Shown: piece by piece, positions 31,622 to 64,000 of the stretch
Layout: every line of letters starts with the position of its first letter
Position numbering within the stretch: position 1 is the first letter of the stretch
From: Actinomycetota bacterium
Lineage (GTDB): Bacteria; Actinomycetota; Acidimicrobiia; Acidimicrobiales; Ilumatobacteraceae
Assembly: GCA_041164425.1 (NCBI GenBank)
Contig: JBEAPO010000127.1
Coordinates: 47,586-111,585, forward strand
Direction of reading: 5' to 3'
DNA length: 64,000 nt
Notes under the pieces: generated by a model
Database searches by the model: none
The model's input: only the letters and a program-made list of their open reading frames with translations
What the model was told of the DNA's origin: nothing
Program-made: the position numbers and the translations under genes

Positions 31622-31633
31622 GAGCACCCCCAC

Positions 31634-32419: not shown

Positions 32420-32434
32420 TGGAGGTAATCAACA

Positions 32435-33151: not shown

Positions 33152-33178
33152 TCATCGGGATCTGAGAGGAACACACAC

Positions 33179-34033: not shown

Positions 34034-34035
34034 CC

Positions 34036-36967: not shown

Positions 36968-36969
36968 AC

Positions 36970-44389: not shown

Positions 44390-45031
44390 ATGGGCTACCT
44401 GGGAGGATTCCTCGTCACCGTGCGTCAGCACGGCAAACGCAACCGCGTGACCACCGAGTACTCGGGTGGCCGCATGTTCCGTCGCGGCAAGAAGGAAAGT
44501 CGCGACGAGAAGATCGAAAAGCCCGAGCGTCTGCACGGACGTCACGTTCTCAACCGTTACGAGGACGGGATGGAAAAGTGCATCGGCTGCGAACTCTGCG
44601 CCGGCGTGTGTCCCGCCAAGTGCATCTACGTGCGGGGCAAGGACAACGATCCCGCCAATCCGACATCGCCCGGTGAACGCTTCGGTTTCGTCTACGAGAT
44701 CAACTACCTGCGCTGCATCCACTGTGACATGTGCGTGGAGGCGTGTCCGACAGAGGCGATCACCGAGACGAAGTTGTTCGAATTCTCTTTTACCAATCGC
44801 CGCGATGCGATCTACACCAAGTCGGAACTCCTCGTCGACGATTCCGGCAAGCCCCAGCACCTGCCGTGGGAGGACTGGCGTCCGGGTGAAGACCTGCACA
44901 CGTCGGGTTGGATGCGTGCGACATCGCCGAGCGGCGATGCCGACTTCGAGGGTGTCGTCGCATGGAGCGGTGAACTTGGCTACGGGGTGCGTGCGGCCGA
45001 GGCCGAGCAGTCCGAGAGGGATCGTCACTAG
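44390..45031 (+). CDS. nuoI: NADH-quinone oxidoreductase subunit I (operon 1)
   Basis: [12 protein letters not shown] and [12 protein letters not shown]. Confidence 0.9.
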
Positions 45032-45574
45032 ATGGAACTCTTCGTCTTCGTCTGCGCCGCCATCATGATTCTGGTGGGCGCACTCGGCGTGGTGTTGCGC
45101 TCGAATCCGGTGCACGCCGCGCTCAGCATGATCCTCACACTCTTCGGTGTGGCTGTGCTCTTCGTCGCGCGTGAAGCCAACTTCCTCGCGGCCGTGCAGG
45201 TGATCGTGTATGCGGGCGCGATCGTCGTTCTCTTCCTCTTCGTGATCATGCTCCTCGGCGTCGACCGTGCCGAAGATCTGCGCACCGAACCGCTCGGCAA
45301 CATCCAACGTCCTCTTGCACTCGTGCTCGGCGTCGGGATGTTCGCCGTACTCACGACCGCAGTCGTGCGATCACGCGACTCACTGCGCTTCAAGGGTGAG
45401 GGTGTTGCGACGGCAACCCTCGAGGATGCCGACGGCAACATCCGCCAAATTGCCCGGTCGATCTTCGGCGACTACGTGGTTGCGTTCGAACTCACGTCGG
45501 TGTTGCTCATCGTGGCCGTCGTGGGCACGGTCGTCCTGGCCCGCCGCCGCAAGTCTGAAAGGACGCCGTCGTGA
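45032..45574 (+). CDS. nuoJ: NADH-quinone oxidoreductase subunit J (operon 1)
   Basis: 180-aa hydrophobic protein. [21 protein letters not shown]...[18 protein letters not shown]. The position in the operon supports the call. Confidence 0.85.
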
Positions 45575-45891
45575 TTGCCGCCGCGGTTGTTCCCACCACG
45601 ACGTGGTACCTCGTTCTCGCGGCGGGGCTCTTCGCGATCGGCATGATCGGCGTCCTCGTGCGTCGGAATCCGCTCATCATGTTCATGTGCATCGAGCTCA
45701 TGTTGAACGCCGTGAACCTGACGTTCGTGGCGCTCGCCACCGAGCTCGCCGACATCAACGGCCAGACGGCCGTGTTCTTCGTTCTCGTCGTTGCCGCCGC
45801 GGAAGTCGTGGTCGGTCTCGGCATCATCGTTTCCATCATGCGTCGACGCCAGCAGGTGTCGGCCGACGACCTCGCGGCGCTGAAGGGTTGA
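45571..45891 (+). CDS. nuoK: NADH-quinone oxidoreductase subunit K (operon 1)
   Basis: [24 protein letters not shown]...[13 protein letters not shown]. Confidence 0.9.
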
Positions 45892-45895
45892 TCAA

Positions 45896-47806
45896 ATGCT
45901 CGACGTCGTTTGGTTGATTCCCGCCCTGCCGCTTGCCGGCTTCATCCTCCTCGTACTTTTCGGCCGCCGTCTCGGCGAACCGAAGGCCGGCTACCTCGCC
46001 GCCGCGATGTGCGGTGGAGCGTTCGTGGTCACCGCGCTCACGTTCTTCGACATGCTGTCGAAGGATGCCGAAGAGCGGTCGCACGTGGTCGATCTCTTCT
46101 CGTGGATTCCCGTGGGTTCGCTCGAGGTGAAGATGGCCTTCCTCGCCGATCCGTTATCGATCACGATGGCGCTCTTCATCACCGGCATCGGCACGCTCAT
46201 CCATCTCTATGCCGTGGGTTACATGCACGGTGATCCGAAGTTCTCGAAGTTCTTCATCTATCTCAATCTCTTCGCGTTCTCGATGCTCATGCTCGTGCTC
46301 GGCGAGAACCTCCTCGTCACGTTCCTCGGCTGGGAGGGCGTGGGTACCTGCTCGTATTTCCTCATCTCCTTCTGGCACACGCGCGAAAGCGCAGCGACTG
46401 CGGGCAAAAAAGCGTTCGTCACCAACCGCGTCGGCGACTGGGGCGTAATGACCGCGATGTTCCTGGCATTTGCATCCGTGGGCACGCTGTCGTACAAGGG
46501 CATCAACGACGCCGCGATCGGTGGATCGCTCAGCCACGTCACTGCGACGGCCATCGCACTGATGCTCTTCATCGGAGCATGTGGCAAGAGCGCCCAGTTG
46601 CCGCTGTACATCTGGCTGCCCGACGCAATGGAAGGTCCGACACCCGTGTCGGCACTCATCCACGCGGCAACGATGGTCACCGCGGGTGTGTTCCTGATGA
46701 CCCGCATGAACCCGGTGATCCACGAGGCATACACGTGGGCACCGATGATCATTGCCGTCGTCGGAGCGGCAACCGCGCTGTTTGCTGCGACCATCGCCGT
46801 CGCGCAGAACGACATCAAGAAGGTCCTCGCGTATTCGACCGTGTCGCAACTGGGTTACATGTTCCTCGCGGTCGGATCGGGTGCCTACATCGCGGCGATC
46901 TTCCACATGATCACCCACGCGTTCTTCAAGGCGCTCCTCTTCCTCGGTTCGGGTTCGGTCATCCACGGCATGCACCATGAACAAGACATGCGTCGCATGG
47001 GAGCCCTGCGCAAGCTCATGCCGGTCACCGCGGTCACCTTCATCATCGGGTGGCTGGCGATTGCGGGCGTGCCGCCGTTCGCCGGGTTCTGGTCGAAAGA
47101 CGAGATCCTTCTCTACGTTTACGCCAACAACCGCGGGCTCTACGTCGTCGGTCTCGTCACCGCACTGCTCACCGCCTACTACATGACGCGTCAGGTGATC
47201 ATGGTGTTCTTCGGCGAGGCGCGCTGGAACGACCACAGCGAGGAGCACGGTGCGCACGGCGACTTCAAGCCCCATGAGAGCCCGCGCATCATGTTGATGC
47301 CGCTCGTGGTTCTCGCCGGTTTGTCGATCGTCGGCGGCGTGTTGCAGTTGCCGTTCACGAAGGATCTCCACTTCCTCGAGAAGTGGCTCGAACCGGTCGT
47401 CGAACACGGCGAGGCGCACATCACCGGTTCGTGGGCGTACGACAACAAGTATCTCCTCATGGGCGTGGCGATCGTCGTTGCGCTTGCAGGTATCGCGGTC
47501 GCGGTCGGTGTCTACGGCAAGAAGAAGTTGAGGGCAATGGAGCCCGAAATCCTCGCCAATGGCTGGTTCTATGACCGCCTGGTGTCGAACTTCATGGGTG
47601 GACCCGGACGTCGTTCGTTCGACGCGGTTGCCTGGGCCGATGCGAACATCATTGATGGCGCGGTTCGTGGCACCGGTGTGGCCGTGCGATCGACCAGTGG
47701 CGTCGTGCGCAGGGTGCAGAGCGGCTTCGTGCGCGCCTATGCCGCGATCATTGCGATTGCGGTGATCCTCATGTTGGTGTGGTTCGTCTACAGGGGGATC
47801 GCATGA
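45896..47806 (+). CDS. nuoL: NADH-quinone oxidoreductase subunit L (operon 1)
   Basis: 636 aa. GWEGVGTCSYFLISFW...KSAQLPLYIWLPDAMEGPTPVSALIHAATMVTAGV. Confidence 0.9.
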   Translation: MLDVVWLIPALPLAGFILLVLFGRRLGEPKAGYLAAAMCGGAFVVTALTFFDMLSKDAEERSHVVDLFSWIPVGSLEVKMAFLADPLSITMALFITGIGTLIHLYAVGYMHGDPKFSKFFIYLNLFAFSMLMLVLGENLLVTFLGWEGVGTCSYFLISFWHTRESAATAGKKAFVTNRVGDWGVMTAMFLAFASVGTLSYKGINDAAIGGSLSHVTATAIALMLFIGACGKSAQLPLYIWLPDAMEGPTPVSALIHAATMVTAGVFLMTRMNPVIHEAYTWAPMIIAVVGAATALFAATIAVAQNDIKKVLAYSTVSQLGYMFLAVGSGAYIAAIFHMITHAFFKALLFLGSGSVIHGMHHEQDMRRMGALRKLMPVTAVTFIIGWLAIAGVPPFAGFWSKDEILLYVYANNRGLYVVGLVTALLTAYYMTRQVIMVFFGEARWNDHSEEHGAHGDFKPHESPRIMLMPLVVLAGLSIVGGVLQLPFTKDLHFLEKWLEPVVEHGEAHITGSWAYDNKYLLMGVAIVVALAGIAVAVGVYGKKKLRAMEPEILANGWFYDRLVSNFMGGPGRRSFDAVAWADANIIDGAVRGTGVAVRSTSGVVRRVQSGFVRAYAAIIAIAVILMLVWFVYRGIA

Positions 47807-49431
47807 TGTTCGCCGCCGAAGCCGCACACGGGTCGACCCTGACGTTCCCGATTCTCACCGCGCTCGTGTTGATTCCCGCCCTCGGCGGCATTCTCACGAT
47901 TCTCACCAGCAACCGTCGTCCCGAGGCGACGAAGTTCGTTGCCCTCGTCGCCAGCACCGTCACGGCCGGTCTCAGCATCTGGTTGCTCTCTTCGTTCGAA
48001 ACCGCCGATGCGGGATTCCAGTTCGTCTCGCAGCACCCGTGGATCCGTGACTGGGGGATCGGGTGGCACGTCGGCGTCGACGGAATCTCGCTGTTTCTTG
48101 TCGTCCTGACGGGTCTGTTGTTCCCGCTGGTCATTGCCGGCATCGACCCGCACCACGACCACAAGCGCTACCTCGGATGGATGCTGGTGCTCGAAGCGGG
48201 CGTCATGGGCAGCTTCATCAGCCTCGACCTTTTCCTCTTTTTCCTGTTCTTCGAGATCGTTCTTGTGCCGATGTACTTCCTCATCGGCGGATGGGGTTAC
48301 GACCAGCGCGTGTACGCGGCGACGAAGTTCTTCCTCTACACGATGTTCGGCTCGGCCTTCATGCTCGTTGGAATCATCGCAACCGCGGTACTCGCCAAGA
48401 ACAGTCTCGGCTACGTCACCTTCGACCTCGTGAAACTCGCCGAGAGTGCGGAGTTCGCTGCGTCGACGGGGCGTTGGCTCTTCATGGCATTTGCCATCGC
48501 CTTTGCGGTGAAGGTTCCACTCTTTCCGTTGCACACGTGGCTGCCCGATGCACACACCCAGGCACCCACCGGCGGCTCGGTCATCCTCGCGGGCGTGCTT
48601 TTAAAACTCGGCACGTACGGCTTCCTCCGCTTCGGTCTCTATCTCTTCCCCGAGGCATCGGTCTGGGCGCGTCCGTTGTTCCTTACCCTTGCGGTCATCG
48701 GCATTCTCTGGGGCGCCATCGCGGCAACCATGCAGAAAGACCTGAAGCGCCTCGTCGCCTACTCCTCGGTTGCCCACCTCGGTTTCATCGTCCTCGGTAC
48801 GTTCGCGTTCACGTCGCAGGCCATCACCGGTGGTGTCATGCAGATGGTCAACCACGGCATCTCGACCGGCGCGCTCTTCCTGCTCGTCGGGATGATTTAC
48901 GAGCGCCGTCACACGCGCGAGATCTCGCAGTTGAAGGGTCTCCAATCCGTCGCGCCGATCTTCGCCGCGGCATTCATGGTCGTCATGCTGTCGTCGATTG
49001 GAGTGCCCGGCCTCAACGGTTTCGTCGGCGAGTTCCTCATTCTCATCGGATCGTTCGGAAATGCACGGTGGTGGGTGGTCGTTGGTGCAACCGGTGTGAT
49101 CCTCGCCGCGCTCTACCTGCTGTGGGCTTACCAACGTGTCTTCCACGGTGAGCCCGACGAGGAGAATTCCTCGTTCGCCGAACTGCGACCCCGTGAAGGA
49201 CTGTTGCTTCTCACGTTCATCGCGGCGATCGTATTCACCGGCGTCTTCCCGAAGCCGATGCTCGACCGTATCGAGCCCAGCGTGAAGGCCCTTGTCGCCC
49301 ACGTCGAAGACCACACCGGTCGTACGCTCGAGTTCGAGGAGAAGGAAATCGCCCCCGTCGAACACTCGGGGGATCACTCCGATGACAAGTCCCAGTCAGA
49401 TGAGTCGGATTCCGAAGGGCACGGAGGCTGA
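47803..49431 (+). CDS. nuoM: NADH-quinone oxidoreductase subunit M (operon 1)
   Basis: ATGA overlap start. FFEIVLVPMYFLIGGWG...KVPLFPLHTWLPDAHTQAPTGGSVILAGVLLKLGTYG. Acidic/His C-terminal tail EHSGDHSDDKSQSDESDSEGHGG. Confidence 0.9.
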   Translation: MMFAAEAAHGSTLTFPILTALVLIPALGGILTILTSNRRPEATKFVALVASTVTAGLSIWLLSSFETADAGFQFVSQHPWIRDWGIGWHVGVDGISLFLVVLTGLLFPLVIAGIDPHHDHKRYLGWMLVLEAGVMGSFISLDLFLFFLFFEIVLVPMYFLIGGWGYDQRVYAATKFFLYTMFGSAFMLVGIIATAVLAKNSLGYVTFDLVKLAESAEFAASTGRWLFMAFAIAFAVKVPLFPLHTWLPDAHTQAPTGGSVILAGVLLKLGTYGFLRFGLYLFPEASVWARPLFLTLAVIGILWGAIAATMQKDLKRLVAYSSVAHLGFIVLGTFAFTSQAITGGVMQMVNHGISTGALFLLVGMIYERRHTREISQLKGLQSVAPIFAAAFMVVMLSSIGVPGLNGFVGEFLILIGSFGNARWWVVVGATGVILAALYLLWAYQRVFHGEPDEENSSFAELRPREGLLLLTFIAAIVFTGVFPKPMLDRIEPSVKALVAHVEDHTGRTLEFEEKEIAPVEHSGDHSDDKSQSDESDSEGHGG

Positions 49432-49433
49432 CG

Positions 49434-50945
49434 ATGTTCGCTGCTGAAACCCTCGCCGGGCCCTCGATCCCGTGGTTCAATCTCAGTCCGCTGTTGGCCT
49501 TGCTCGCCGGAGCGTGTGTTTTGATGCTCGGTGGATCGCTGCTGCCGCAGTGGCCGCGTGGTTTGTACGGCATCGTCAGTGCGGCAACGGCCGCGACGTC
49601 GATCGTTTTGTGCTTCTTCCTCTGGGACAATCTCTCCGATGGTCGTCCAGAAACGATCGTCAACGATGCACTCGCATTCGATCACTTCGCGGTTCTCGGA
49701 ACGATCACGATCTGTGTGGCGGTGCTTCTCGCCAGTTTGACGACGAGTGACTATCTCGTGCGCGAGGGTGAAGACGGACCAGAGCTGTTCGTGCTGTACC
49801 TCGCTGCAGCCATCGGTGGCATCGTCATGGTGGCGTCACAGGACCTCATTGTTCTGTTCCTCGGCCTCGAGACCCTCAGCCTCGCGTTGTACGTCCTCGC
49901 GGCGAGCAACCGCCGTCGCGAGGAAAGCCAGGAGGCGGGTCTCAAGTACTTCATCCTCGGCGGTTTCTCGTCGGCGTTCTTCCTCTACGGAATCGCGCTC
50001 ATCTACGGTGCGACGAAGCACACCAATCTCGGCCGCATCATGGAGTCGCTGTCGACCGAGCAGGTGTTCCCGCGTAACGACGTGTTGTTGCTCGTCGGTG
50101 TCGGTCTGCTCCTCGTCGGTCTTGCATTCAAGGTCGCCGCGGTGCCCTTCCAGGTGTGGACCCCCGACGTCTACCAGGGTGCTCCGACGCCCGTCACATC
50201 GTTCATGGCGTCGGCCGGCAAGACGGCGGCGTTTGCCGCGTTGTTGCGTGTCAGTGTGACCGCCCTCGAGAGTCGTGTCGACGACTGGCGCCCGGTCGTC
50301 TGGGTGCTCGCCGTTCTCAGCCTCGTCGTCGGGTCGGTGCTCGCCGTCACGCAAACCAATGTGAAGCGCATGCTCGCGTACTCGTCGATCAGCCACGCCG
50401 GCTTCATCCTGCTCGGTGTCGAAGCCGCGTCACACACCTCGTCGTCGAGCGCAGGCGACGGCATCGCATCGGCGATGACGTATCTGCTGCTCTACACGGT
50501 CCTCGTCATCGGAACCTTCACGATCGTCGGCCTCGTCGCCGGCCAGGGTGACGGCGCATCGAATCTCACCGACTTCCGCGGACTCGGTCGTCGTCGTCCG
50601 GCACTCGCGCTCGCGCTCACGGTTTTCCTTCTCGCCCAAGCCGGCATGCCACTGACGTCGGGCTTCGTCGCCAAGTTCGGCGTCATCCGCGCGGCGATCG
50701 AGACGCACAGCTATGCGATCGCAATCATCGCGATGCTGGCGTCGGTAATCGGTGCCTACCTCTACCTACGCATCATGGTGAGCGCATGGATGGAAGACGC
50801 CGAAGGCGAAGAAGCGGCGCCGAAGGTTCCGTTCCTCTCGGGTCTAGCGGTCACCGCGGCCGTCGTGTTCACGCTGGTCGTCGGGGTTGTTCCGGGTTGG
50901 TTGCTCGACGCGACGCGTCAGGTGATCTCGCTCGCCGGTCGCTGA
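49434..50945 (+). CDS. nuoN: NADH-quinone oxidoreductase subunit N (operon 1)
   Basis: 503 aa. LGLETLSLALYVLAA...FKVAAVPFQVWTPDVYQGAPTPVTSFMA. Confidence 0.9.
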   Translation: MFAAETLAGPSIPWFNLSPLLALLAGACVLMLGGSLLPQWPRGLYGIVSAATAATSIVLCFFLWDNLSDGRPETIVNDALAFDHFAVLGTITICVAVLLASLTTSDYLVREGEDGPELFVLYLAAAIGGIVMVASQDLIVLFLGLETLSLALYVLAASNRRREESQEAGLKYFILGGFSSAFFLYGIALIYGATKHTNLGRIMESLSTEQVFPRNDVLLLVGVGLLLVGLAFKVAAVPFQVWTPDVYQGAPTPVTSFMASAGKTAAFAALLRVSVTALESRVDDWRPVVWVLAVLSLVVGSVLAVTQTNVKRMLAYSSISHAGFILLGVEAASHTSSSSAGDGIASAMTYLLLYTVLVIGTFTIVGLVAGQGDGASNLTDFRGLGRRRPALALALTVFLLAQAGMPLTSGFVAKFGVIRAAIETHSYAIAIIAMLASVIGAYLYLRIMVSAWMEDAEGEEAAPKVPFLSGLAVTAAVVFTLVVGVVPGWLLDATRQVISLAGR

Positions 50946-52166: not shown

Positions 52167-52185
52167 TCGGAATTACCGTACCCCC

Positions 52186-52943: not shown

Positions 52944-53309
52944 ATGTCCCCCTTCTTGCGGTCATACCTCACCGTCGTGTGGTTCGGCCTCGCGGCCTTC
53001 CTTCTCGGCGGATTGCTTTTGTGGCTCGCCTCGTTGCTGCGGCCGGTCAAGCCGACCCCGGAAAAGGTCCTCGCCTACGAGAGTGGTGTCGATCCGGTGG
53101 GCGAAGGATGGTCGCAAAGCCAGATCCGCTATTACGTCTTCGCACTCCTCTTTGTCGTGTTCGACGTCGAGGCGGTGTTTCTCTTCCCGTGGGCGACGCA
53201 ACTCGAGCGTTATGGGTCGTTCGGTCTGGTCGAAATGGGCGTTTTCGTCGCGGTCCTGCTGCTCGGACTCGTGTACGCATGGCGCAAGGGGGTCCTGCGC
53301 TGGGTCTAG
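52944..53309 (+). CDS. nuoA: Complex I-like subunit A (operon 2)
   Basis: ATG at 52944 after GGAGG, inside track ORF 52518..53309. YESGVDPVGEGWSQSQIRYYVFALLFVVFDVEAVFLFPWA. Confidence 0.85.
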   Translation: MSPFLRSYLTVVWFGLAAFLLGGLLLWLASLLRPVKPTPEKVLAYESGVDPVGEGWSQSQIRYYVFALLFVVFDVEAVFLFPWATQLERYGSFGLVEMGVFVAVLLLGLVYAWRKGVLRWV

Positions 53310-53345
53310 GCCGCGCAGGAGTCAGAACGGATCAAAGGAAAAGAC

Positions 53346-53897
53346 ATGGGACTCGTAGATCGTGGGCGACTGCCCAAATCACTGAATTCACTGTTCAACC
53401 TCGGGCGTTCGTATTCGCTCTGGGTGTATCAGTGGGGCCTTGCCTGTTGCGCAATCGAAATGGGTGCCGCCTTCGGCTCACCTCGTTACGACGTGATGCG
53501 TCTCGGCGTCATCCCGCTGCCGGCTAGTCCGCGGCAGGCCGACCTCGTCGTGATTTCGGGAACCGTCACCGACAAGATGGCACCAGCGGTCAAACGTCTC
53601 TACGAGCAGATGCCCGAGCCGAAGTACGTGATCTCGATGGGCAGCTGCGCGAACTGTGGCGGGCCGTACTGGGACAGCTATTCGGTGACGAAGGGCGTCG
53701 ACCAGATCATTCCCGTCGACGTGTACGTACCGGGATGCCCGCCGCGTCCGGAGGCATTGCTCGAGGGCATCGTTCTCCTGCAGCAACGCATCAAGAACGA
53801 AGACATGGGCGCACGTTGGCGTGGTGAAGGAACCGTCTCGCTCGCCGCATCCGCCGAAGCCGAGCGCAAGGGAGAACCCGTTGTCGTCGCTCGCTGA
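53346..53897 (+). CDS. nuoB: Complex I-like subunit B (operon 2)
   Basis: [13 protein letters not shown]...[12 protein letters not shown]...VPGCPPRPE. Confidence 0.9.
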
Positions 53898-54492
53898 AAT
53901 CACTGCCGCACTCGGCGATGTCATCGAGGAGTCGTTCGAAAAGGGTCCGGAAGGCAACGTCGACACGTGGATTCGCGTCAAGACTGAATCGTGGCGCGAC
54001 GCCGCACGCTCGTTGCGCGAGAAGCTCGGCTATGACTACTTCTGTTTCCTCTCGGCAATCGACTGGATGCCATCGCCGTACGGCCGTGGTGAGGAAGACC
54101 CGACCGTCGAACGCGAGCCGATCGACTCGACGGTCCGTCAGGGCTACGCCGGCGGTGCCACGCGCATGCAGGTGTTCGCACGTCTGGTCAACCACCGCAC
54201 GCGTCACGGCGTCACCTTGAAAGCCGACGTACCCGACGACTCGATGGCGGTCGATTCGTGGGTGGGTGTTTTCGCCGGCGCGAACTGGCACGAGCGCGAA
54301 ACGCACGAGATGTTCGGTATCGATTTCGCCGGACATCCCGATCTGCGGAACATGTATCTGCCCACTGACTTCGAGGGTTACCCATTGCGCAAGGACTTCC
54401 CGTTGCTCGCACGCATCGTGAAGCCGTGGCCGGGAATCGTCGACGTCGAACCGCTGCCCGGTGGCGGCGATGACGAAGGAGTCGCCGAATGA
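53881..54492 (+). CDS. nuoC: Complex I-like subunit C (operon 2)
   Basis: TTG at 53881 after [48 protein letters not shown]. Confidence 0.8.
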
Positions 54493-55661
54493 CGATGTTG
54501 GGTGACCGCCAGCAACTCGCGTACATAGCGTCACAGGCCGCGGACGCACGCGTGAACGTGGAACTCGAGACCGAGGGCATGACCCTCAACATCGGGCCGC
54601 AACACCCCGCGACACACGGAACACTGCGCATCATCGCGCGCCTCGACGGCGAGCAGGTTGTTTGGGCAGAGCCGTCGTGCGGCTACATGCACCGTGGCTA
54701 CGAAAAGCTCACCGAGGTGCGCACCTTCCCGCAGGTCACCGCGTTGGTGAACCGCATCGACTGGTTGGGAAGCTTTGCGAACGAGGTGCCTTTCATCCTC
54801 GCCGCGGAACAGTTGATGGGCATCGAGGCGCCACCGCGCGCGCAGTGGATCCGCACGATTCTCTTCGAACTGTCGCGCATCGCGAACGTGTCGCTCTTCC
54901 TCGGCGACCTCGGTGTGCAATTGGGTGCCATCACCCCGGTGTTCTTCGCTTTCCGCGATCGCGAGTACGTGCTGAATCTCATCGAGGGCGCGACGGGTGG
55001 TCGCTTCCATCCGAACTTCGACCGCATCGGCGGCCTGAAGGATGACCTGCCCGCCGGCTGGATCGATGAGACGCGCGCCGTCATGCGCAAGATGCGCAAG
55101 TTCTGCGACGAGATCGAAGGCCTTCTCTTCGGCAACGAAATCTTCGAGGCGCGTACACGTGGTATCGGCGTCATCCCGCGCGACGTCGCCCTGCAGTACG
55201 GCCTTTCCGGGGCAAACCTCCGCGGCAGCGGCGTCGACTGGGACCTGCGCCGCGACCAGAAACTGCCGATGGCGTGGGACAAGATCGACTGGAAGGTGTG
55301 GACGCACCCCGACGGCGACTCGTACGCGCGCTGCTGGATCCGCCTGCAGGAAGTTCGTGAGTCCACGTTCATGGTCGAGAAGTTGCTCGATTCCCTGCCG
55401 TCAGGCCCTGTCATGGCCAAGGTGCCACGCATCATCAAGGTGCCCGAAGGCGAAGCCTGGGTGTCGACGGAAAACCCGCTCGGCGAGATGGGCTACTACG
55501 TCGTCTCGAAGGGTGAACTCGGACCGTTCCGCGTGAAGATCCGCTCGGCAAGTTTCAACAACATCTCCATCGTGCCGTGGTTGCTGAAGGGCGTGTACGT
55601 GCCCGACATCATCACGATCCTCGCGTCGCTCTACTTCATTCTCGGGGACATCGATCGCTGA
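54489..55661 (+). CDS. nuoD: Complex I-like subunit D (operon 2); retains the H-R-G-x-E-K motif
   Basis: LNIGPQHPATHGTLRIIARL...CGYMHRGYEKLTE. The Arg codon lies at 54693-54695. Confidence 0.9.
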   Translation: MTMLGDRQQLAYIASQAADARVNVELETEGMTLNIGPQHPATHGTLRIIARLDGEQVVWAEPSCGYMHRGYEKLTEVRTFPQVTALVNRIDWLGSFANEVPFILAAEQLMGIEAPPRAQWIRTILFELSRIANVSLFLGDLGVQLGAITPVFFAFRDREYVLNLIEGATGGRFHPNFDRIGGLKDDLPAGWIDETRAVMRKMRKFCDEIEGLLFGNEIFEARTRGIGVIPRDVALQYGLSGANLRGSGVDWDLRRDQKLPMAWDKIDWKVWTHPDGDSYARCWIRLQEVRESTFMVEKLLDSLPSGPVMAKVPRIIKVPEGEAWVSTENPLGEMGYYVVSKGELGPFRVKIRSASFNNISIVPWLLKGVYVPDIITILASLYFILGDIDR

Positions 55662-56713
55662 TGTTGGGCCTGATTGCCAGCATTCCCTACTGGGCGCAGT
55701 CGCTGTTGCGGGTGCTCGGCGGAATCGTCGCCGTGCTTCTCCCCGCGGGAACCATCGTTTACGTCTTCCTCTTCAAGATGATGTCCTTCATGCAGAGCCG
55801 ACTCGGACCGATGGAGGCCGGGCCGTTCGGCTCGCTGCAGTTGTTCGCCGAAGTGGGGAAGTGGCTCCAAAAAGAAGACCTCTACCCCGAGCGCGCCGAC
55901 CGTTTCATCTTCAAGATCGCGCCGCTCATCGTCCTCTCCAGCACGTTCCTCCTCGTCGCGGTGGTGCCGTTCGGGCCCGATGCATGGTTCACCAACTTCG
56001 AGGCGGGAGTCTTCTACGCGCTCGCCGTCTCGTCGGTCTCGGTTCTCGGCATCCTGATTGCCGGTTGGGCAAGTGCGAACAAGTACTCACTGCTCGGTGG
56101 TCTGCGCGCTGCGGGTCAGTTGATTGCGTACGAACTACCGATGGTGCTCGCCGTCATCGGTGTCGTCATCCAGGCCGGAACGATGAACCTGCAACAGATC
56201 GTCGTTGCGCAGAATGCCGGATCGATCTTCGGCTGGGACGGTCTCGGCAACCCGTACATCCTCACCCAGTTCATCGGTTTCGTGATCTTCATGATCGCGG
56301 TTCAGGCAGAACTCACCCAGGCACCTTTCGACATGCCGATCGCGGAATCGGAACTCGTGTCGGGCTACATGACCGAGTACTCGGGCTTCCGCTTCCTCAT
56401 TTTCTTCATCGGTGAGTTTGCGACGGCCGGCGTGTTCGCTCTCATCGCCTCGATCCTCTTCCTTGGAGGTTGGGGCGTCCCGTTCGCGTGGTTTGGCTGG
56501 ACCAGCATCGACAGCATCGACAACTGGATGAACGTCGTTGGTCCGCTGATCATGTTCACGAAGATGATGCTCCTCGTCTTCGTCATCATGTGGGTGCGCT
56601 TCAGCTACCCGCGTTTCCGTGAGGACCAACTGCAGCGCTTCGCGTGGAAGGTTCTCATCCCGTTGTCACTCGTCAACATCATGGCGACGTCGGTCTTGAA
56701 GGTGGCGTTCTAA
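55661..56713 (+). CDS. nuoH: Complex I-like subunit H (operon 2)
   Basis: TGATG overlap start. [33 protein letters not shown]...[26 protein letters not shown]. Confidence 0.9.
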
Positions 56714-57204
56714 TGGCGAAGGTCCCCGGCCTACTAAAGGGCCTCGGTGTCACTCTCGGAACGATGGTGGAAACCGTCACCAAGGGTGCGAACACCGTGC
56801 AGTACCCGCACGAAAAGGAGACGCCGCCCATTCGTGCGCGCGGCGTCATCGCGCTGCACGAGGGCAACTGCACCTCGTGCATGCTGTGCGCGCGGTCCTG
56901 CCCCGACTGGTGTATTTACATCGAGGGTCACAAGGAACTTGCTCCTCCGCGTCGCGCGGGCGGAAAGCCGCGACAGGTGAACAAGCTCGACCGTTTTGAC
57001 ATCGACTACGCGCTGTGCATGTACTGCGGCATCTGTGTCGAAGTGTGTCCGTTCGACGCACTCTTCTGGAGCCCCGAGTACGAGTATTCCGAACCGCGTA
57101 TCGCCGACCTCCTCCACGACAAGGCCAAGTTGGGCGAATGGATGGAGACCGTTCCCGAAGCTCCCGAACTCGATGCCGGTGCCGAGAAGAAGGGCAAGAA
57201 GTAA
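56713..57204 (+). CDS. nuoI: Complex I-like subunit I (operon 2)
   Basis: TAATG overlap start. [12 protein letters not shown] and [12 protein letters not shown]. Confidence 0.9.
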
Positions 57205-57699
57205 ATGGTTGCCCAGAACATCGCGTTCGGCATCGTCGCCGCGATCATGGTGTGGGGCGCGCTACGCGTCGTCACCGTCAAGAACGTCGTGCACGCCGCG
57301 TTGTGGTTGGTGCTGGTTCTCGCGGGCGCCGCGGCCCAGTACGTCATTCTCGCCGCCGAGTTCGTTGCCATCACCCAGGTGCTCGTCTACATCGGTGCTG
57401 TGATGGTGCTTTTCCTGTTCGGCACAATGCTCACCCGCGCCCGCATCGGTGCCGAGCAAGAACTGAACAACAACTCGTGGTGGCTGGGTGTGCCGTCGGC
57501 GGGCATTCTGCTCGGCGTCATCACGCTCGCACTCGTCTCGGGTTTCGGCGACGAGGAACTGCCGAAGGATGCCGCGGTCGTAACGACGCAGGAGATTTCC
57601 GACCAGATCTTCGGTCCGTATCTGTTGCCGTTCTGGGCACTGTCGTTCGTGCTGCTCGTGGCCGTCATCGGAGCGATCGTGCTCGCGAGGAAGGACTGA
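57205..57699 (+). CDS. nuoJ: Complex I-like subunit J (operon 2)
   Basis: VKNVVHAALWLVLVLAGAAAQYV...TQVLVYIGAVMVLFLF. Confidence 0.85.
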   Translation: MVAQNIAFGIVAAIMVWGALRVVTVKNVVHAALWLVLVLAGAAAQYVILAAEFVAITQVLVYIGAVMVLFLFGTMLTRARIGAEQELNNNSWWLGVPSAGILLGVITLALVSGFGDEELPKDAAVVTTQEISDQIFGPYLLPFWALSFVLLVAVIGAIVLARKD

Positions 57700-57702
57700 C
57701 AC

Positions 57703-58002
57703 ATGCTCGTCAACCAATTCCTCATCCTCGCCGCAGTTCTGTTCTGCATCGGTGTCTATGGCGTGATCGCGCGCCGGAATGCAGTCATGGTCCTCATGTC
57801 GATCGAATTGATTCTCAACTCGGTCAACCTGAATCTCATCGCGTTTGCATTGCGCAACGGCAGCGTCGACGGACACATCTTCGCGCTGTACATCATCGCT
57901 GTGGCCGCGGCTGAGGTCGGCGTCGGCCTCGCGCTCGTGCTGCTCGTCTATCGCAACCGCAAGTCGATCGGCCTCGAAGAGCTGTCGGAGATGAAGGGCT
58001 GA
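57703..58002 (+). CDS. nuoK: Complex I-like subunit K (operon 2)
   Basis: RRNAVMVLMSIELILNSVNLNLIAF...IAVAAAEVGVGLAL. Confidence 0.9.
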   Translation: MLVNQFLILAAVLFCIGVYGVIARRNAVMVLMSIELILNSVNLNLIAFALRNGSVDGHIFALYIIAVAAAEVGVGLALVLLVYRNRKSIGLEELSEMKG

Positions 58003-58004
58003 TC

Positions 58005-60587
58005 ATGTTCGCTGCCTCTGAAGCCGCTGCCGAAACCGCCGCCGTCGCCTTGAAGTCGGGCTGGTTCCTCGAGAACGCCTGGATCATCCCGATCATCCCA
58101 GCCGTCGCGTTCGCGCTGATCATCTTCTTCGGCAAGAAGTTGCCAATGAAGGGCAGCGAACTCGGTGTGCTGTCGATGGTCGCCACGCTGGTCCTGGCGG
58201 GTGGCGCCGCGTTCCAGTGGATCGACCGCGTCAACTCGGCCTCCGAGGGCCAGTACATCGAACCCGTCATTCGCAGTTGGAACTGGTGGCAGAGCGGCGG
58301 ATTCGACCTCTCGATCGGCCAGCACATGGACGGCCTGTCGCTGACGGTTCTCGTTGTCGTGGCGTTCATTTCGACCCTCGTACAGATCTACTCGCTCGAG
58401 TACCTGCGCGGCGACCGCCGCTACACGCACTTCTTCGCGTCGTTGACACTCTTCTCCGCGGGCATGATGAACATGGTCATCGCCGACAACATGATCCAGC
58501 TGATCCTCGGCTGGGAAATCATGGGCCTCTGCTCGTTCATGCTGATCGGTCACTGGTGGGAGGACAAGGCGAACAGCCGCGCAGCACTGAAGGCGTTCTT
58601 CACCACCCGCACCGGCGACATCGGCCTGCTGGTCGGCACGAGCATCCTCTTCTTCAGCGCGAACTCGTGGACCCAAGAGCACCTCGGCGTTTCCGGCTTC
58701 AGCATCCGAGGCCTGTCGGCGTGGGCGCTCAGCGGCAGCCCCGGCAGCGTGGCAATCACGGCCGGCGCATTCGCCCTCTTCGTTGCGTGCATCGGAAAGT
58801 CGGGTCAGTTCCCACTGCACACGTGGCTGCCCGATGCCATGGCCGGTCCGACCCCCGTCAGCTCGCTCCTTCACTCCTCGACGATGGTCGTGGCCGGCGT
58901 CTTCCTTGTCGCGCGCCTCTTCCCCGTGTTCTACGAGGGAATGAACATCTACGGCTCGTCGATGAACTTCATCACGTTGATCGGCGGCATCACGATCATC
59001 ATTGCGGCGTTGCTCGCCTTCGTTCAGGACGACATCAAGAAGGTGTTGGCGTACTCCACCGTGTCGCAGCTCGGGTACATGATGATGGGTCTCGGTGCGG
59101 GCGCGTGGTTGCCGGCCGTGTTCCACATCTTCACCCACGCGTTCTTCAAGGCATGTCTCTTCCTCGCCGCGGGTTCGGTCAGTCACAGTGGCTCGCACCA
59201 CTCGTTCGACATGAAGAAGGACATGGGCGGCCTGCGCAAGTACATGCCGATCACCTTCGTCACCTGGGTCATCTCGACCCTCGCACTGTGCGGCGTGTTC
59301 CCACTGTCGGGCTTCTTCTCGAAAGACGAGATCATCGACAACGTCGGCTACGCGGGTTACGACATCTTCATGATCGTCGGCCTCGTCGGTGCCTTCATGA
59401 CTGCGGCGTACATGACGCGTGCGACGTACCTCACCTTCTTTGGCGAACCGCGTGGCGCAGCCGCCGGTGAACACCACGAAGAAGCCGGCCATGATGATCA
59501 CGGCCATGACGCGCACGCGGCAGGCCATGGGCACGGCCATGACGCGCACGCGGCAGGCCATCACGATGATCACGGCCACGGCCATGATGATCACGGTTCG
59601 CATGGTCCGCACGAGTCGAATGCTTTCATCACGGTTCCGCTCGTCATCCTCGCGACGTTGGCAATCGGCGCCGGTCTCTTGAACGCGACTCCCTTCGGTG
59701 AGAAGTGGGAGAACATGAAGAAGTGGATCGAGCCGCGACCCGTCGTCGTCGGCGACGTCGACCATGCGTCCGTTGGCGAGGTGCGCGGATTCCGCACGGC
59801 CGACACACTTCCCGCAACTCAAGATTCGGCTGTCAGTGAAGAGACTGTCCTCACCGAAGAGACCGCCGTGGCAATGGAAGAAGGCGTCTCACCCGAGGCG
59901 AAGGCCGCACCTGCTCCGTTGATGGCGACTGCCGCACCCGCCGCCGGTGGTGAAGAAGGTGGCGAAGAAGCCATCGCATACGCCGCCGAAGACGGTCACT
60001 CGGCCGAGGCGGGCGGTTACGACTCGCACGGTTCCGACTGTGGCAAGAAGACTCCCGAAGCCGGTGTCTGTTACGCGCCGTACGTGAAGCACGCGCCGTT
60101 CAAGTGGGCGAAGGCCGCGCTGTCGATGGCAATCGTGTTCGCGGGCCTCATCCTCAGTTGGCTGGTCAGCGTTCAGCTGTACACCCGCAAGCGCGGGTTC
60201 TTCGTTGGTCTCACGCAGAAGAACAAGTTGCTCGCGGCCGGCCACGCGTTCCTGGTGAACAAGTACTACCTCGATCACCTCTACGAGAAGATCATCGTCC
60301 GGGGAATCGCCCATCCGATCGCGAAGGGCGCGTACTGGATCAACCAAAACATCCTCGACGGCATCATCAACGGCACCGGTATCGGAGCCAAGGGTGTTGC
60401 TCGTTGGGTCTACCGCAACGTCGATCAGCGAGTGGTCGATGGCGCGGTGAACGGTTCCGGAGCAGTCGCCCGCGGTGCGGGTGGCGCTTTGCGCCCCGTT
60501 CAGTCAGGAAAAGTCAACCAATACGGGGCTCTGCTCTTTGCTGCTGCAGCAGTGGCCGGCCTCGTCCTAATCATCATCAACACCTGA
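58005..60587 (+). CDS. nuoL: Complex I-like subunit L (operon 2), 860 aa with His-rich and acidic insertions
   Basis: GWEIMGLCSFMLIGHWW...KSGQFPLHTWLPDAMAGPTPVSSLLHSSTMVVAGV. It is about 220 aa longer than the operon-1 paralogue. Confidence 0.9.
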   Translation: MFAASEAAAETAAVALKSGWFLENAWIIPIIPAVAFALIIFFGKKLPMKGSELGVLSMVATLVLAGGAAFQWIDRVNSASEGQYIEPVIRSWNWWQSGGFDLSIGQHMDGLSLTVLVVVAFISTLVQIYSLEYLRGDRRYTHFFASLTLFSAGMMNMVIADNMIQLILGWEIMGLCSFMLIGHWWEDKANSRAALKAFFTTRTGDIGLLVGTSILFFSANSWTQEHLGVSGFSIRGLSAWALSGSPGSVAITAGAFALFVACIGKSGQFPLHTWLPDAMAGPTPVSSLLHSSTMVVAGVFLVARLFPVFYEGMNIYGSSMNFITLIGGITIIIAALLAFVQDDIKKVLAYSTVSQLGYMMMGLGAGAWLPAVFHIFTHAFFKACLFLAAGSVSHSGSHHSFDMKKDMGGLRKYMPITFVTWVISTLALCGVFPLSGFFSKDEIIDNVGYAGYDIFMIVGLVGAFMTAAYMTRATYLTFFGEPRGAAAGEHHEEAGHDDHGHDAHAAGHGHGHDAHAAGHHDDHGHGHDDHGSHGPHESNAFITVPLVILATLAIGAGLLNATPFGEKWENMKKWIEPRPVVVGDVDHASVGEVRGFRTADTLPATQDSAVSEETVLTEETAVAMEEGVSPEAKAAPAPLMATAAPAAGGEEGGEEAIAYAAEDGHSAEAGGYDSHGSDCGKKTPEAGVCYAPYVKHAPFKWAKAALSMAIVFAGLILSWLVSVQLYTRKRGFFVGLTQKNKLLAAGHAFLVNKYYLDHLYEKIIVRGIAHPIAKGAYWINQNILDGIINGTGIGAKGVARWVYRNVDQRVVDGAVNGSGAVARGAGGALRPVQSGKVNQYGALLFAAAAVAGLVLIIINT
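59499..59561 (+). repeat. 33-bp-period tandem duplication inside nuoL (operon 2)
   Basis: The 30-mer cacggccatgacgcgcacgcggcaggccat occurs identically at 59499-59528 and 59532-59561, encoding HGHDAHAAGH twice. Confidence 0.95.
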
Positions 60588-60600
60588 GGAGCAATTCGGC

Positions 60601-62160
60601 ATGGACCAACTCCGTGACGCCAACTGGGTGCTCAGCGTCGGCACCTTCCTACCGCTAGCCGGTGTGCTGGTGATGCTGTTCATCCCCAAGGCAGAGGAAC
60701 AGTTGAACAAAGCGGTCGCGCTGCTGACAGCACTCGCGACGCTCGCGGTCGGCGTCTACACGCTGACGCAGTTCGACTACGACCAGGCCGGCAAGATGCA
60801 GTTCGTCGCCGAGACGAACTGGATCTCGGTGATCAAGAGCACGTATTACATCGGCGTCGACGGCATCAGCCTGCCGCTGTACTTCTTGTCGATGGTGATC
60901 ACGGTGCTCGTGATGATCTACAGCTGGAACCACATCCCATCACCCGGGAACCCGAAGGCATTCCTGATGCTGATGTTGGTCCTGCAGACGGGCATGGCGG
61001 GAACCTTCATCGCCCAAGATCTCATCCTCTTCTTCGTGTTCTTCGAACTCGTGCTGTTGCCGATGTACTTCATGATCGGTGTCTGGGGTGGAGAGAACCG
61101 CCAATACGCATCGCTCAAGTTCTTCCTCTACACGATGTTCGGCTCGGCACTCATGTTGGTGGCATTCCTCGCCTTGTTCTTCAAGACCGGCGCCGAGAGC
61201 TTCGCGATTCCGTATCTCGTCGAGAACGGCGCGGCAATCGCGAAGAACACGCAGGTCTGGATCTTCGCCGGAATGTTCGTCGGCTTCGCCGTCAAGGTGC
61301 CGATGTTCCCCTTCCACACCTGGTTGCCCGATGCTCACACGCAGGCACCGACCCAAGGTTCGGTCATCCTTGCCGCGATCCTGCTGAAGCTCGGTACGTA
61401 CGGCTTCATGCGCATCGCGATTCCGATTCTCCCCGACGCCGCCGTCGAGTGGGCGCCGTGGATCGGGCTCCTCGCAGTCATTGGCATCATCTACGGCGCA
61501 CTCGGATGCCTCGCGCAGTCCGACATGAAGCGCCTCATTGCTTTCTCGTCGGTGGCGCACATGGGCTTCGTGATGCTGGGTATCTCGACACTCACGTCGT
61601 TCGGTATGAACGCGGCCGTGTTCGGCATGGTCGCCCACGGGCTCATCACCGGCATGCTGTTCTTCATCGCGGGCAGCGTGAAAGAGCGCTACCACACCCT
61701 CGAGATCGCGCGCCTCAGCGGCATGTTGAAGCAGGTACCGAAGTTGGGGTGGATCCTCGGCTTCTGCGCAATGGCCTCGCTCGGTCTTCCCGGTCTCGCC
61801 GGATTCTGGGGTGAATTCCCCGCGATTCTCTCGGCCTACAACCCGGCCGACGGACTGTCGGAAGAGATCTTCCGCGTTTACATGGTCATCGCCGCACTCG
61901 GCACGGTGTTCGCTGCCGCTTACCTGTTGTGGCTCTACCAGCGCACCGCCTTCGGTGAACCGAACCCCGAGTTCACCAGCCACGGGCACGGACACGGCCA
62001 CGATGACGACCACGACGAGATCCACGACGTGAACGCTTTCGAGTGGGCCGCTTGGACGCCATTGCTCATTGCCATCGTGCTGTTCGGTGTGATGCCGAAC
62101 CTCATGTTCAAGATCATCGACCCGGCGGTCGCCACGATCGTCTCCGGATTCGGAGGCTGA
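60601..62160 (+). CDS. nuoM: Complex I-like subunit M (operon 2)
   Basis: FFELVLLPMYFMIGVWG...KVPMFPFHTWLPDAHTQAPTQGSVILAAILLKLGTYG. His-rich insert SHGHGHGHDDDHDEIHD at nt 61978-62031. Confidence 0.9.
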   Translation: MDQLRDANWVLSVGTFLPLAGVLVMLFIPKAEEQLNKAVALLTALATLAVGVYTLTQFDYDQAGKMQFVAETNWISVIKSTYYIGVDGISLPLYFLSMVITVLVMIYSWNHIPSPGNPKAFLMLMLVLQTGMAGTFIAQDLILFFVFFELVLLPMYFMIGVWGGENRQYASLKFFLYTMFGSALMLVAFLALFFKTGAESFAIPYLVENGAAIAKNTQVWIFAGMFVGFAVKVPMFPFHTWLPDAHTQAPTQGSVILAAILLKLGTYGFMRIAIPILPDAAVEWAPWIGLLAVIGIIYGALGCLAQSDMKRLIAFSSVAHMGFVMLGISTLTSFGMNAAVFGMVAHGLITGMLFFIAGSVKERYHTLEIARLSGMLKQVPKLGWILGFCAMASLGLPGLAGFWGEFPAILSAYNPADGLSEEIFRVYMVIAALGTVFAAAYLLWLYQRTAFGEPNPEFTSHGHGHGHDDDHDEIHDVNAFEWAAWTPLLIAIVLFGVMPNLMFKIIDPAVATIVSGFGG

Positions 62161-62164
62161 ACCA

Positions 62165-63676
62165 GTGTTGTCCTCGCTCCTCGCAGCAACGTCGTGGACG
62201 GCGCCCGTCGTCGACTACCACGGTCTCGCACCCGAGATCGTGGTGGCCCTCGGATTGTGCGTCGTGCTGCTCGTCGACTTGTTCCTGGCGGAGCGCAGCA
62301 AATGGCTGCTTGCCAGCCTCACCGGCTTCACACTCCTCGGGGCGTTCATCCCGGTGTTGACGCTCGCCCTCGACGATGCCGGTGTTCGTGCGATGTTCGA
62401 CGGTCGATACGTCATCGATGATTTCAGCCTCATCCTGAAGGGTCTGTTCCTTTTGGCGGGTTACGTCGTCGTGCTGTTGTCGACGACCTACATCGAAGAG
62501 GGTGAGTACTACCAGGGCGAGTACTGGGTCCTCATGTTGTCGAGCATCCTCGGCATGATGATGATGACCTCAAGTCGTGATCTCGTCTCGGTTTTCGTGG
62601 CGCTCGAGTTCCTTTCGATTCCGGCGTACATGCTGGCCGCATGGCGCAAGCGCGACGCAAAGAGCAACGAAGCTGGCGTGAAGTATTTCCTTCTCGGTGT
62701 GTTCGCCTCGGCGATCATGTTGTACGGCATGTCACTGCTGTACGGCGTCACAAACTCCACGCTGCTTGCCGACATCGGCGCATCGATCTCGGGTGAACTG
62801 ACGGCGGTGCGCGTTCTCGCGATTGTCTTCGTCGTCGTCGGTTTCGCTTTCAAAGTTTCGGCCGTTCCGTTCCACACCTGGGCCCCCGACACCTACGAGG
62901 GTGCGCCGACTCCCGTGACGGCGTTCCTCTCGGTGGCGTCGAAAGCAGCAGGTTTCGTTGCGCTTGTGACGGTGCTCTATGTCGCGGTGCCCGGCGGCTC
63001 CGACGTGTGGCAGCCGCTCGTCTGGGTGCTCGCCGTTCTCACGATGACCGTGGGCAACGTCCTCGCTCTGCGCCAGACGAACATCGTTCGCATGCTCGCG
63101 TATTCGTCGATCAGCCAGGGCGGCTTCATTCTCATGCCGCTCGCCGTGGCGGCGGAAGGTGGTGCTGGCGAAGCGGTGTTGCGTTCGGTCGTCACCTACC
63201 TCATCGTCTACGCGGCGACGAACCTCGGAACGTTCGCCGTGATTCTCGCCGTGAGCCGCAAGACACGCAGCGGTGAAATCTCGTCGTTCGGTGGACTGTT
63301 CAGTTACGCCCCAGGTCTCGGTGTCGTCATGACAATCTTCCTCGGTTCGCTCGCCGGCATTCCGCCGCTCGGTGGTTGGATCGGAAAGTTCTCCGCGTTC
63401 CAGGCCGTGCTCGAGGCGGGCACCGGTTGGGCCTACGCGATTGCGATCGTCGGTGCGGTGAACTCGGTCGTCGCGTTCGGCTACTACGGCAACGTGATGC
63501 GCGAGATCTGGATGCGACCGGTTCCCGACGGAGACACGACACAGGTCCGCACGCCGGCACCGTTGGTGCTCGCACTTTCGATCACCACGATTGCAACGCT
63601 GGCGCTCGGAGTGTTGCCCGGTGTGGCGCTGCACTTCGGCGATCTCGCCACCTTCGCCGGTGTCCTCGGCGGCTGA
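62165..63676 (+). CDS. nuoN: Complex I-like subunit N (operon 2)
   Basis: FVALEFLSIPAYMLAA...FKVSAVPFHTWAPDTYEGAPTPVTAFLS. Confidence 0.9.
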   Translation: MLSSLLAATSWTAPVVDYHGLAPEIVVALGLCVVLLVDLFLAERSKWLLASLTGFTLLGAFIPVLTLALDDAGVRAMFDGRYVIDDFSLILKGLFLLAGYVVVLLSTTYIEEGEYYQGEYWVLMLSSILGMMMMTSSRDLVSVFVALEFLSIPAYMLAAWRKRDAKSNEAGVKYFLLGVFASAIMLYGMSLLYGVTNSTLLADIGASISGELTAVRVLAIVFVVVGFAFKVSAVPFHTWAPDTYEGAPTPVTAFLSVASKAAGFVALVTVLYVAVPGGSDVWQPLVWVLAVLTMTVGNVLALRQTNIVRMLAYSSISQGGFILMPLAVAAEGGAGEAVLRSVVTYLIVYAATNLGTFAVILAVSRKTRSGEISSFGGLFSYAPGLGVVMTIFLGSLAGIPPLGGWIGKFSAFQAVLEAGTGWAYAIAIVGAVNSVVAFGYYGNVMREIWMRPVPDGDTTQVRTPAPLVLALSITTIATLALGVLPGVALHFGDLATFAGVLGG

Positions 63677-64000
63677 CGAACTTCGCGCGGCGATCGCCGC
63701 ACACGGTGGACCAATCCCGTTCCACCGGTTCATCGAAATCGCGCTGTACGGCGAACACGGCTTCTATGCCACCAGCGGTGCGGCCGGACGGCGTGGCGAC
63801 TTCATCACGTCCGCAGAGGTCGGCCCGCTCTTCGGTGCGGTCATCGCCCGTGCGCTCGATGCGTGGTGGCGGGAAATGGGAGAACCCGATGACTTCACGG
63901 TTGTCGAGGCAGGAGCCGGGCCCGGCACGCTGGCGCGCGCGATCCTCGCGGCCGCACCGATGTGCCTCGAAAAAGGCCGTTACATCGCCGTCGAGGTTTC
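63660..64000 (+). CDS. MidA/NDUFAF7-family (DUF185, COG1565) SAM-dependent methyltransferase, N-terminal part (runs off the window)
   Basis: Absent from the track because it is partial. GTG at 63660 overlaps the nuoN2 3' end by 17 nt. Product: VSSAADELRAAIAAHGGPIPFHRFIEIALYGEHGFYATSGAAGRRGDFITSAEVGPLFGAVIARALDAWW...VVEAGAGPGTLA. The PI-F-FME-ALY...GYY and GDF-T-PE---LFG patterns, followed by a GxGxG SAM motif, fit the family. Confidence 0.7.
   Translation, partial: MSSAADELRAAIAAHGGPIPFHRFIEIALYGEHGFYATSGAAGRRGDFITSAEVGPLFGAVIARALDAWWREMGEPDDFTVVEAGAGPGTLARAILAAAPMCLEKGRYIAVEV

Follow-up and report, generated by a model that had tools for sequence, protein, structure and literature searches.

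A MidA/NDUFAF7-family methyltransferase gene overlapping the end of an 11-subunit complex I operon in Ilumatobacteraceae

The question that this locus raises is why a gene for a MidA/NDUFAF7-family methyltransferase should sit at the very end of a respiratory operon. The window analysed here, a stretch of 64,000 nucleotides (nt) of contig JBEAPO010000127.1 from an Actinomycetota bacterium of the family Ilumatobacteraceae, carries two operons for complex I, the canonical nuo1 and an 11-gene nuo2, and the methyltransferase gene (hereafter midA) starts within nuoN2, the last structural gene of the second. We find that midA keeps this place across related genomes, and that only the NuoD encoded by nuo2 carries the arginine which the mitochondrial enzyme is known to methylate.

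In human cells, NDUFAF7 symmetrically dimethylates Arg85 of NDUFS2 and is required for complex I assembly (PMC3829151). The same dimethyl-arginine occurs in Pichia and, in a bacterial complex I, on Nqo4 (NuoD) of Paracoccus denitrificans (PMC3750175); a review, citing Shahul Hameed et al. 2018, further holds that bioinformatic and structural evidence indicates that alpha-proteobacterial NDUFAF7 homologues perform the methylation (PMC9006661). The view taken in a preliminary description of this DNA, that no function is established for the MidA homologues of bacteria, was therefore slightly too strong and stands only in a softened form. A 2025 paper describes the function of prokaryotic MidA as inferred in silico only (PMC12455994). 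In the literature that we searched, we found no paper joining NDUFAF7 with an operon and nuoN, and no genomic-context evidence tying bacterial MidA to complex I.

The gene, its product and its candidate substrate

The midA open reading frame (ORF) begins at a GTG and runs in a different frame from nuoN2, whose TGA (63674-63676) closes the 17-nt overlap between the two genes (GTGTCCTCGGCGGCTGA); the coordinates first proposed for this overlap proved correct (Table 1). It stays open for 113 codons up to the end of the window, which thus contains only the first third of the gene. The full length, 343 codons with a projected window span of 63660-64691, was read on contig L090 (GCA_049425205.1), located via P0145, a 343-residue protein from an Ilumatobacteraceae metagenome-assembled genome (MAG) whose N-terminus is identical to all 113 residues of the window ORF. 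L090 is 99.64% identical in nucleotide sequence to window positions 53660-64000, without gaps, and so represents a conspecific copy that reaches beyond the window end. On it, midA is followed by a TetR-family gene that runs convergently on the opposite strand and overlaps the 3' end of midA, then by an acetyl-CoA synthetase gene and yajQ; with this convergent neighbour, the nuo2 unit ends at midA.

Used as a search query, the 113-residue fragment retrieved truncated proteins only (≤197 residues), two of them frameshifted long-read copies, and such matches are a poor guide to the length of the gene. In two long-read metagenome assemblies, L001 and L002 (midA region 10001-11100), midA and several nuo genes are split by frameshifts; assemblies of this sort account for the many 140-residue 'partial' MidA proteins in the databases. 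We considered whether midA might be a pseudogene and rejected the idea, as intact ORFs of 338-365 codons with 57-75% N-terminal identity occur in most of 80 species-level genomes (the best 80 loci from a scan of one genome per GTDB species; all Acidimicrobiia, mostly Ilumatobacteraceae). The few shorter or longer reads among the 80 represent contig ends or error-prone assemblies.

The identity of the product, originally put forward as DUF185/MidA-like, is now supported by profile, sequence and structure. The fragment matches PF02636 (Methyltransf_28, the MidA/DUF185 family) with 30.7 bits against a cut-off of 23.3, a match also precomputed for full-length P0145, and it finds the solved family members 1zkd (R. 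palustris DUF185, 1.5e-14), 5ztz (Dictyostelium MidA, 2.5e-12) and 4f3n (Burkholderia COG1565, 3.9e-10); P0125, a full-length close relative, matches 4f3n with an E-value of 2.6e-26. Residues 82-90 of the window ORF, VEAGAGPGT, form the motif I that binds S-adenosylmethionine (SAM), in which G87, G89 and T90 are invariant across our alignment of actinobacterial and alpha-proteobacterial homologues; the GxGxG of this motif is also common to the aligned N-terminal regions of Dictyostelium MidA and the window protein. P0145 retains the invariant columns of the same alignment (GRxGDFxT..E, GxGxGT, ANE..D, DY and D.T), those encoded 3' of the window being A142, N143, E144, D147, D222, Y223, D260 and T262. 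For the AlphaFold model of P0145 (pLDDT 89.1, pTM 0.87), the six top PDB matches are all MidA/COG1565 proteins (4f3n/4g67, 5ztz/5zu0 and 1zkd; E 2e-23 to 7e-20, TMq 0.72-0.80), whilst the next, generic class I methyltransferases, score TM ≤0.4. The best match by both sequence and structure is the likewise uncharacterised COG1565 protein of Burkholderia thailandensis (4F3N/4G67; TMq 0.76-0.80); TMq to Dictyostelium MidA (5ztz/5zu0) is 0.77, indicating the same fold. The midA product is thus a member of the MidA/NDUFAF7 family, and a predicted SAM-dependent protein arginine methyltransferase. In a search of clusters at 50% identity, 8040 were found at E ≤1e-3 and only 266 at ≤1e-30, which places the protein in a distinct subfamily.

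The alpha-proteobacterial MidA proteins, represented by R. palustris 1ZKD, belong to the same family and are presumed enzymes (PMC9006661), but there the host complex is the canonical one with 14 subunits. Some public records name the Rhodopseudomonas homologues (P0400, P0406) 'ATP synthase subunit beta', probably an inherited misannotation; the JGI name for them is 'NADH dehydrogenase 1 alpha subcomplex assembly factor 7'.

Turning to the candidate substrate, the preliminary description had placed the human Arg85 in the motif LLHRGTEK, and alignment bears this out: our human NDUFS2 segment corresponds exactly to residues 48-199 of PDB chain 5xtd_Q (the mature protein of 430 residues), in which the arginine of LLHRGTEK is residue 85. 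The NuoD2 motif GYMHRGYEK (within CGYMHRGYEKL, as first read) aligns without gaps with human NDUFS2, with Thermus GYLHTGFEK and with chloroplast NdhH GYLHRGMEK, making Arg69 of NuoD2, followed by glycine as in the human protein, the exact equivalent of Arg85. NuoD1, also as first read (IGYLHTGMEKT), has threonine at this position, and its GYLHTGMEK aligns with the HTG of Thermus thermophilus Nqo4 and Mycobacterium smegmatis NuoD.

This difference between the paralogues has a published counterpart. In T. thermophilus, the threonine of Nqo4 is compensated by Arg83 of Nqo6 (NuoB), which fills the same space beside cluster N2, and the equivalent NuoB position in Yarrowia is threonine (Hameedi et al. 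2021, PMC8042128). In the window, the arginine of NuoB1 aligns with Thermus Nqo6 Arg83 (VAGRLSKKMAP), an arginine that M. smegmatis shares, and Thr73 of NuoB2 aligns with the threonine of mammalian PSST (VAGTLTNKMAP in mouse and cow). Judged from these alignments, the two operons reproduce both states of the NuoD/NuoB residue switch, nuo1 the Thermus state and nuo2 the mitochondrial one, and the arginine confined to one NuoD is thus half of a known two-state design. Unlike in Thermus, both states coexist here in one genome as paralogues, and midA accompanies only the state in which NuoD supplies the arginine.

Linkage of midA to nuoN in related genomes

A survey of relatives, suggested at the outset, shows that midA is linked to nuoN2. 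In 78 of the 80 scanned loci there is DNA 5' of midA, and our counts use these. Of the 78, 77 have the gene directly 3' of nuoN2 (spacing -64 to +161 nt), and the 17-nt overlap recurs in identical register (GTGCCxTCGGCxGCTGA) in 54; an arrangement that recurs so often is not a product of chance. The sole exception, L080 (450-10000), has about 9.5 kb between nuoN2 and midA, and in L002, which was found outside the scan, a ROK-family gene is inserted between nuoN and midA; the junction is otherwise unbroken. The gene 3' of midA, on the other hand, is variable, falling into 19 clusters in 54 loci (luciferase-like, GT61, DUF6311, EamA and TetR among them). Two contigs of a single MAG (L020 and L055, JBJTFU01) each carry a nuoN2-midA junction, which suggests that the operon is duplicated, that strains are mixed or that the bin is contaminated.

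The NuoD that accompanies a linked midA is of the arginine type throughout: where nuoD lies within reach upstream, all 38 proteins keep the arginine, in line with what had been anticipated. Our search pattern matched 36 of them, 35 reading GYMHRGYEK and one, in L057, GYLHRGIEK. The two that appeared to lack the motif were resolved on inspection: L070 is a frameshifted assembly that still encodes the arginine, and L030 (387-720) reads GYMHRCYEK, with cysteine for the glycine after the arginine, a genuine variation on the RG context or else a MAG error. The operon of L057 (1-10063) is a mosaic; its C, D and H products are ~39-44% identical to those of nuo2 (NuoD 43%), L is nearer to NuoL1 (50%), M and N are nuo2-like (60-64%), and there is no nuoI between nuoH (end 2667) and nuoJ (start ~2682). 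Here too midA follows nuoN, after a gap of ~100 nt.

Beyond the Acidimicrobiia scan, we added six representatives of 50%-identity clusters, with MidA identities of 39-43%, and one alpha-proteobacterial locus. Among the six, midA directly follows nuoN in four (L083, L085, L093 and one JGI contig) and lies three genes downstream of nuoN in L088. The NuoD of L083, 74% identical to NuoD2, reads GYMHRGYEK. In L085 (2557-4205), DUF4178, PspA and PspAA genes stand between nuoI and nuoJ, and in L093 (1-4179) Tad-pilus and STAS/anti-sigma genes precede nuoJKLMN; in both, midA still comes after nuoN. On the two points at which it could be challenged in silico, the mapping of Arg85 and the linkage of midA to nuo genes, the methylation hypothesis of the preliminary description has thus held.

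The two operons and their surroundings

The features discussed are collected in Table 1. The nuo2 operon is, as had been described, a contiguous set of 11 subunit genes without those of the NADH-oxidising N-module: Pfam assignments and gene calls give A, B, C, D, H, I, J, K, L, M and N, and neither yields nuoE, nuoF or nuoG within the operon. The genes are tightly packed, with 36 nt between nuoA2 and nuoB2 and, from nuoC2 through nuoN2, gaps of ≤13 nt or overlaps.

Table 1. Coordinates of midA, the candidate target residues and the nuo genes in the window
Feature	Position	Strand	Basis or remark
midA/NDUFAF7-like methyltransferase gene, 5' 341 nt (113 codons)	63660..64000	+	PF02636, PDB matches, P0145 identity, motif I
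17-nt overlap, nuoN2 stop region/midA GTG start	63660..63676	+	same in 54/78 relatives
NuoD2 Arg69, codon CGT; NDUFS2 Arg85 equivalent, candidate methylation site	54693..54695	+	
NuoD1 Thr at Arg85-equivalent position, codon ACC (operon 1)	37767..37769	+	
NuoB2 Thr73, codon ACC; T. thermophilus Nqo6 Arg83/PSST Thr position	53562..53564	+	
NuoB1 Arg, codon CGC; Nqo6 Arg83 position, compensating Arg of Thr-type quinone module	36626..36628	+	
nuo2 operon, 11 genes (A, B, C, D, H, I, J, K, L, M, N)	52944..63676	+	Pfam scans and L090 gene calls
nuoA2	52944-53309	+	window; start read from ORF translation
nuoB2	53346-53897	+	window
nuoC2	53881-54492	+	L090 gene call shifted +53659
nuoD2	54489-55661	+	L090 gene call shifted +53659
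nuoH2	55661-56713	+	L090 gene call shifted +53659; abuts nuoD2 at 55661
nuoI2	56713-57204	+	L090 gene call shifted +53659
nuoJ2	57205-57699	+	L090 gene call shifted +53659
nuoK2	57703-58002	+	L090 gene call shifted +53659
nuoL2	58005-60587	+	L090 gene call shifted +53659
nuoM2	60601-62160	+	L090 gene call shifted +53659
nuoN2, last structural gene of operon 2	62165..63676	+	PF00361 2.1e-67; 503-residue call at same place in L090
nuo1, canonical 14-gene operon A-N including E, F, G (internal contrast)	35898..50945	+	

The product of nuoL2 is 860 residues long, against 636 for NuoL1 and 660-860 in relatives. It has an insert at residues 488-536 (59466-59612) of low complexity, rich in His, Asp and Gly (GEHHEEAGHDDHGHDAHAAGHGHGHDAHAAGHHDDHGHGHDDHGSHGPH), then an acidic, Ala-rich stretch of ~150 residues, and then the C-terminal helices; the His-rich insert could be a metal-binding loop.

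The region between the two nuo operons (50958-52857) holds a threonine dehydratase-like PALP/ACT-domain gene on the minus strand and a class I glutamine amidotransferase (GATase) gene; the latter, on the same strand as nuoA2 and ending 86 nt upstream of it, might share the nuo2 transcript. The immediate flanks of nuo2 are thus the GATase gene upstream and midA and TetR downstream. Directly 5' of nuo1 (31208-35055) is a cytochrome bc/b6f-like cluster, comprising a 4Fe-4S dicluster protein, a split cytochrome b (N-terminal and petD-like parts), a Rieske protein and a c-type cytochrome, and the window therefore presents itself as a respiratory island of bc complex, nuo1, nuo2 and midA.

Proposed function, its rivals and what it would mean

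Bringing these observations together, we propose that the 11-subunit complex has in the midA product its own dedicated arginine methyltransferase and assembly factor, acting on Arg69 of NuoD2; we regard this as probable, though some way short of secure. In such a model midA would be co-transcribed with the nuo2 operon, and its translation probably coupled to that of nuoN2 through the 17-nt overlap, a likely site for such coupling. The enzyme would then catalyse SAM-dependent methylation, probably symmetric dimethylation, of Arg69 beside cluster N2, as NDUFAF7 does in mitochondria, during assembly of the quinone module of the complex that has no NuoEFG. The canonical complex I of the same cell should need no such step, because NuoD1 has threonine and NuoB1 supplies the arginine.

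A number of points weigh against this proposal. The association of MidA with complex I in this lineage is a genomic one, and the activity of the actinobacterial subfamily is assigned from family, fold and genomic context. Unlike NDUFAF7 and Dictyostelium MidA, the predicted enzyme is bacterial and ~60-90 residues shorter (P0145 has 343 residues, the solved homologues chains of 387-432), and P0125 matches 5ztz by sequence over the N-terminal region only. Foldseek identity to Dictyostelium MidA is 22%, and identity to the uncharacterised alpha-proteobacterial homologues is ~30-33% over the whole alignment. Nor does the presence of the arginine imply its methylation: E. coli NuoCD shares the HRG arginine with NuoD2, but there it is unmodified (PMC3750175), and HRG is found in chloroplast NdhH as well. 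Arginine alone is thus neither diagnostic nor a predictor of methylation, and a MidA gene would be the extra ingredient. We know of no COG1565 gene in E. coli.

The linkage itself can also be read in another way, namely that midA encodes a methyltransferase with some other substrate, protein or nucleic acid, and has come to stand after nuoN2 through inherited gene order with no tie to NuoD2. Shared ancestry does account for part of the linkage, since the genomes are related and the wider synteny, nuo2-midA-...-acs, is partly kept, with an acetyl-CoA synthetase gene (acs) within ~2.5 kb downstream in 25 of 54 loci; this weakens the argument, which we had considered, that synteny breaks right after midA. 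The count of 78 genomes likewise overstates the number of independent events, as most belong to Ilumatobacteraceae. The sixth of the distant representatives, P0372 (326 residues; L086, 1-10981), is unlinked to nuo, its gene following a complete F1Fo ATP synthase operon at a distance of ~2.3 kb, with a PadR gene and small ORFs in between; and in the one alpha-proteobacterium examined, no nuo genes lie within 10 kb of the Rhodopseudomonas midA, which sits in the order lgt-midA-Cu-oxidase_4. To this may be added the low identity of the subfamily to solved homologues (~22-33%) and the finding that a Wolbachia MidA expressed in E. coli methylated DNA, at both adenine and cytosine (PMC12455994). Set against these, however, are features that go beyond shared ancestry: the start/stop overlap is retained in 54 genomes, adjacency to nuoN persists at ~40% protein identity (39-43%) and even where the operon has been rearranged, and insertions are frequent 3' of midA but rare between nuoN and midA. 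Moreover, a NuoD homologue is the sole substrate established by experiment for the family, and the target arginine is present in every linked NuoD within reach. On balance we consider a different substrate unlikely, if by no means fanciful.

Two further alternatives keep the tie to complex I. The product might chiefly be a chaperone, binding NuoD2 during assembly, in which case methylation would be dispensable or would not take place; the operon position fits a role in nuo2 biogenesis and is silent on which activity matters. Shahul Hameed and colleagues are said to have proposed, in 2018, a methyltransferase-independent contribution of MidA to complex I, which counts in favour of this idea. 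Retention of the SAM-binding motif I and of the other columns invariant in actinobacterial and alpha-proteobacterial homologues nonetheless speaks against a loss of catalysis, and we think a mainly chaperone role improbable. It is more improbable still, to the point where we give it hardly any credence, that the enzyme acts on both complexes, for instance by also modifying the compensating arginine of NuoB1. Both configurations are indeed present in the window, and comparison of Thermus with Yarrowia has the two arginine side chains occupying the same space (PMC8042128); but it is operon 2, not operon 1, that carries midA, and the surroundings of the NuoB1 arginine (VAGRVSQ) are unrelated to the HRG context. 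We are not aware of any report that the Thermus-type NuoB arginine is methylated.

Returning to NuoD2 Arg69 as the favoured target of midA, the kind of system is a known one, and we see the finding less as a surprise than as a clean lead that can be tested. Its novelty lies in the lineage, in the placing of the gene within the operon, where unlike its eukaryotic counterparts it overlaps nuoN and is probably coupled to it in translation, in the pairing with a complex that has no NADH-oxidising module, and in the coexistence of both states of the residue switch in one genome. More tentatively, and with the chances perhaps leaning the other way, we speculate that MidA-dependent arginine methylation could be an ancient step in maturing the Arg-type quinone module, encoded in the operon and reaching beyond proteobacteria and mitochondria; in Acidimicrobiia the step would be dedicated to the 11-subunit paralogue without an N-module, the canonical complex avoiding the step via the NuoD-Thr/NuoB-Arg switch. 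If so, the modification would tune cluster N2 or assembly of the quinone site independently of NADH oxidation.

The dimethyl-arginine beside cluster N2 may serve assembly or act as a redox tuner, and its role is hard to separate from that of the arginine itself because loss of NDUFAF7 in eukaryotes blocks assembly (PMC3829151, PMC8042128). With the arginine present only in the NuoD of operon 2, this freshwater actinobacterium therefore offers a natural experiment on the function of the modification, and one with a built-in control, in that the Arg-type complex with its MidA gene shares the cell with a Thr-type complex that has none. The lineage ties bacterial MidA to complex I by genomic context, and would link the modification to a complex without an NADH module. 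In addition, several hundred Acidimicrobiia genes presently called 'SAM-dependent methyltransferase' or 'hypothetical' gain a concrete annotation.

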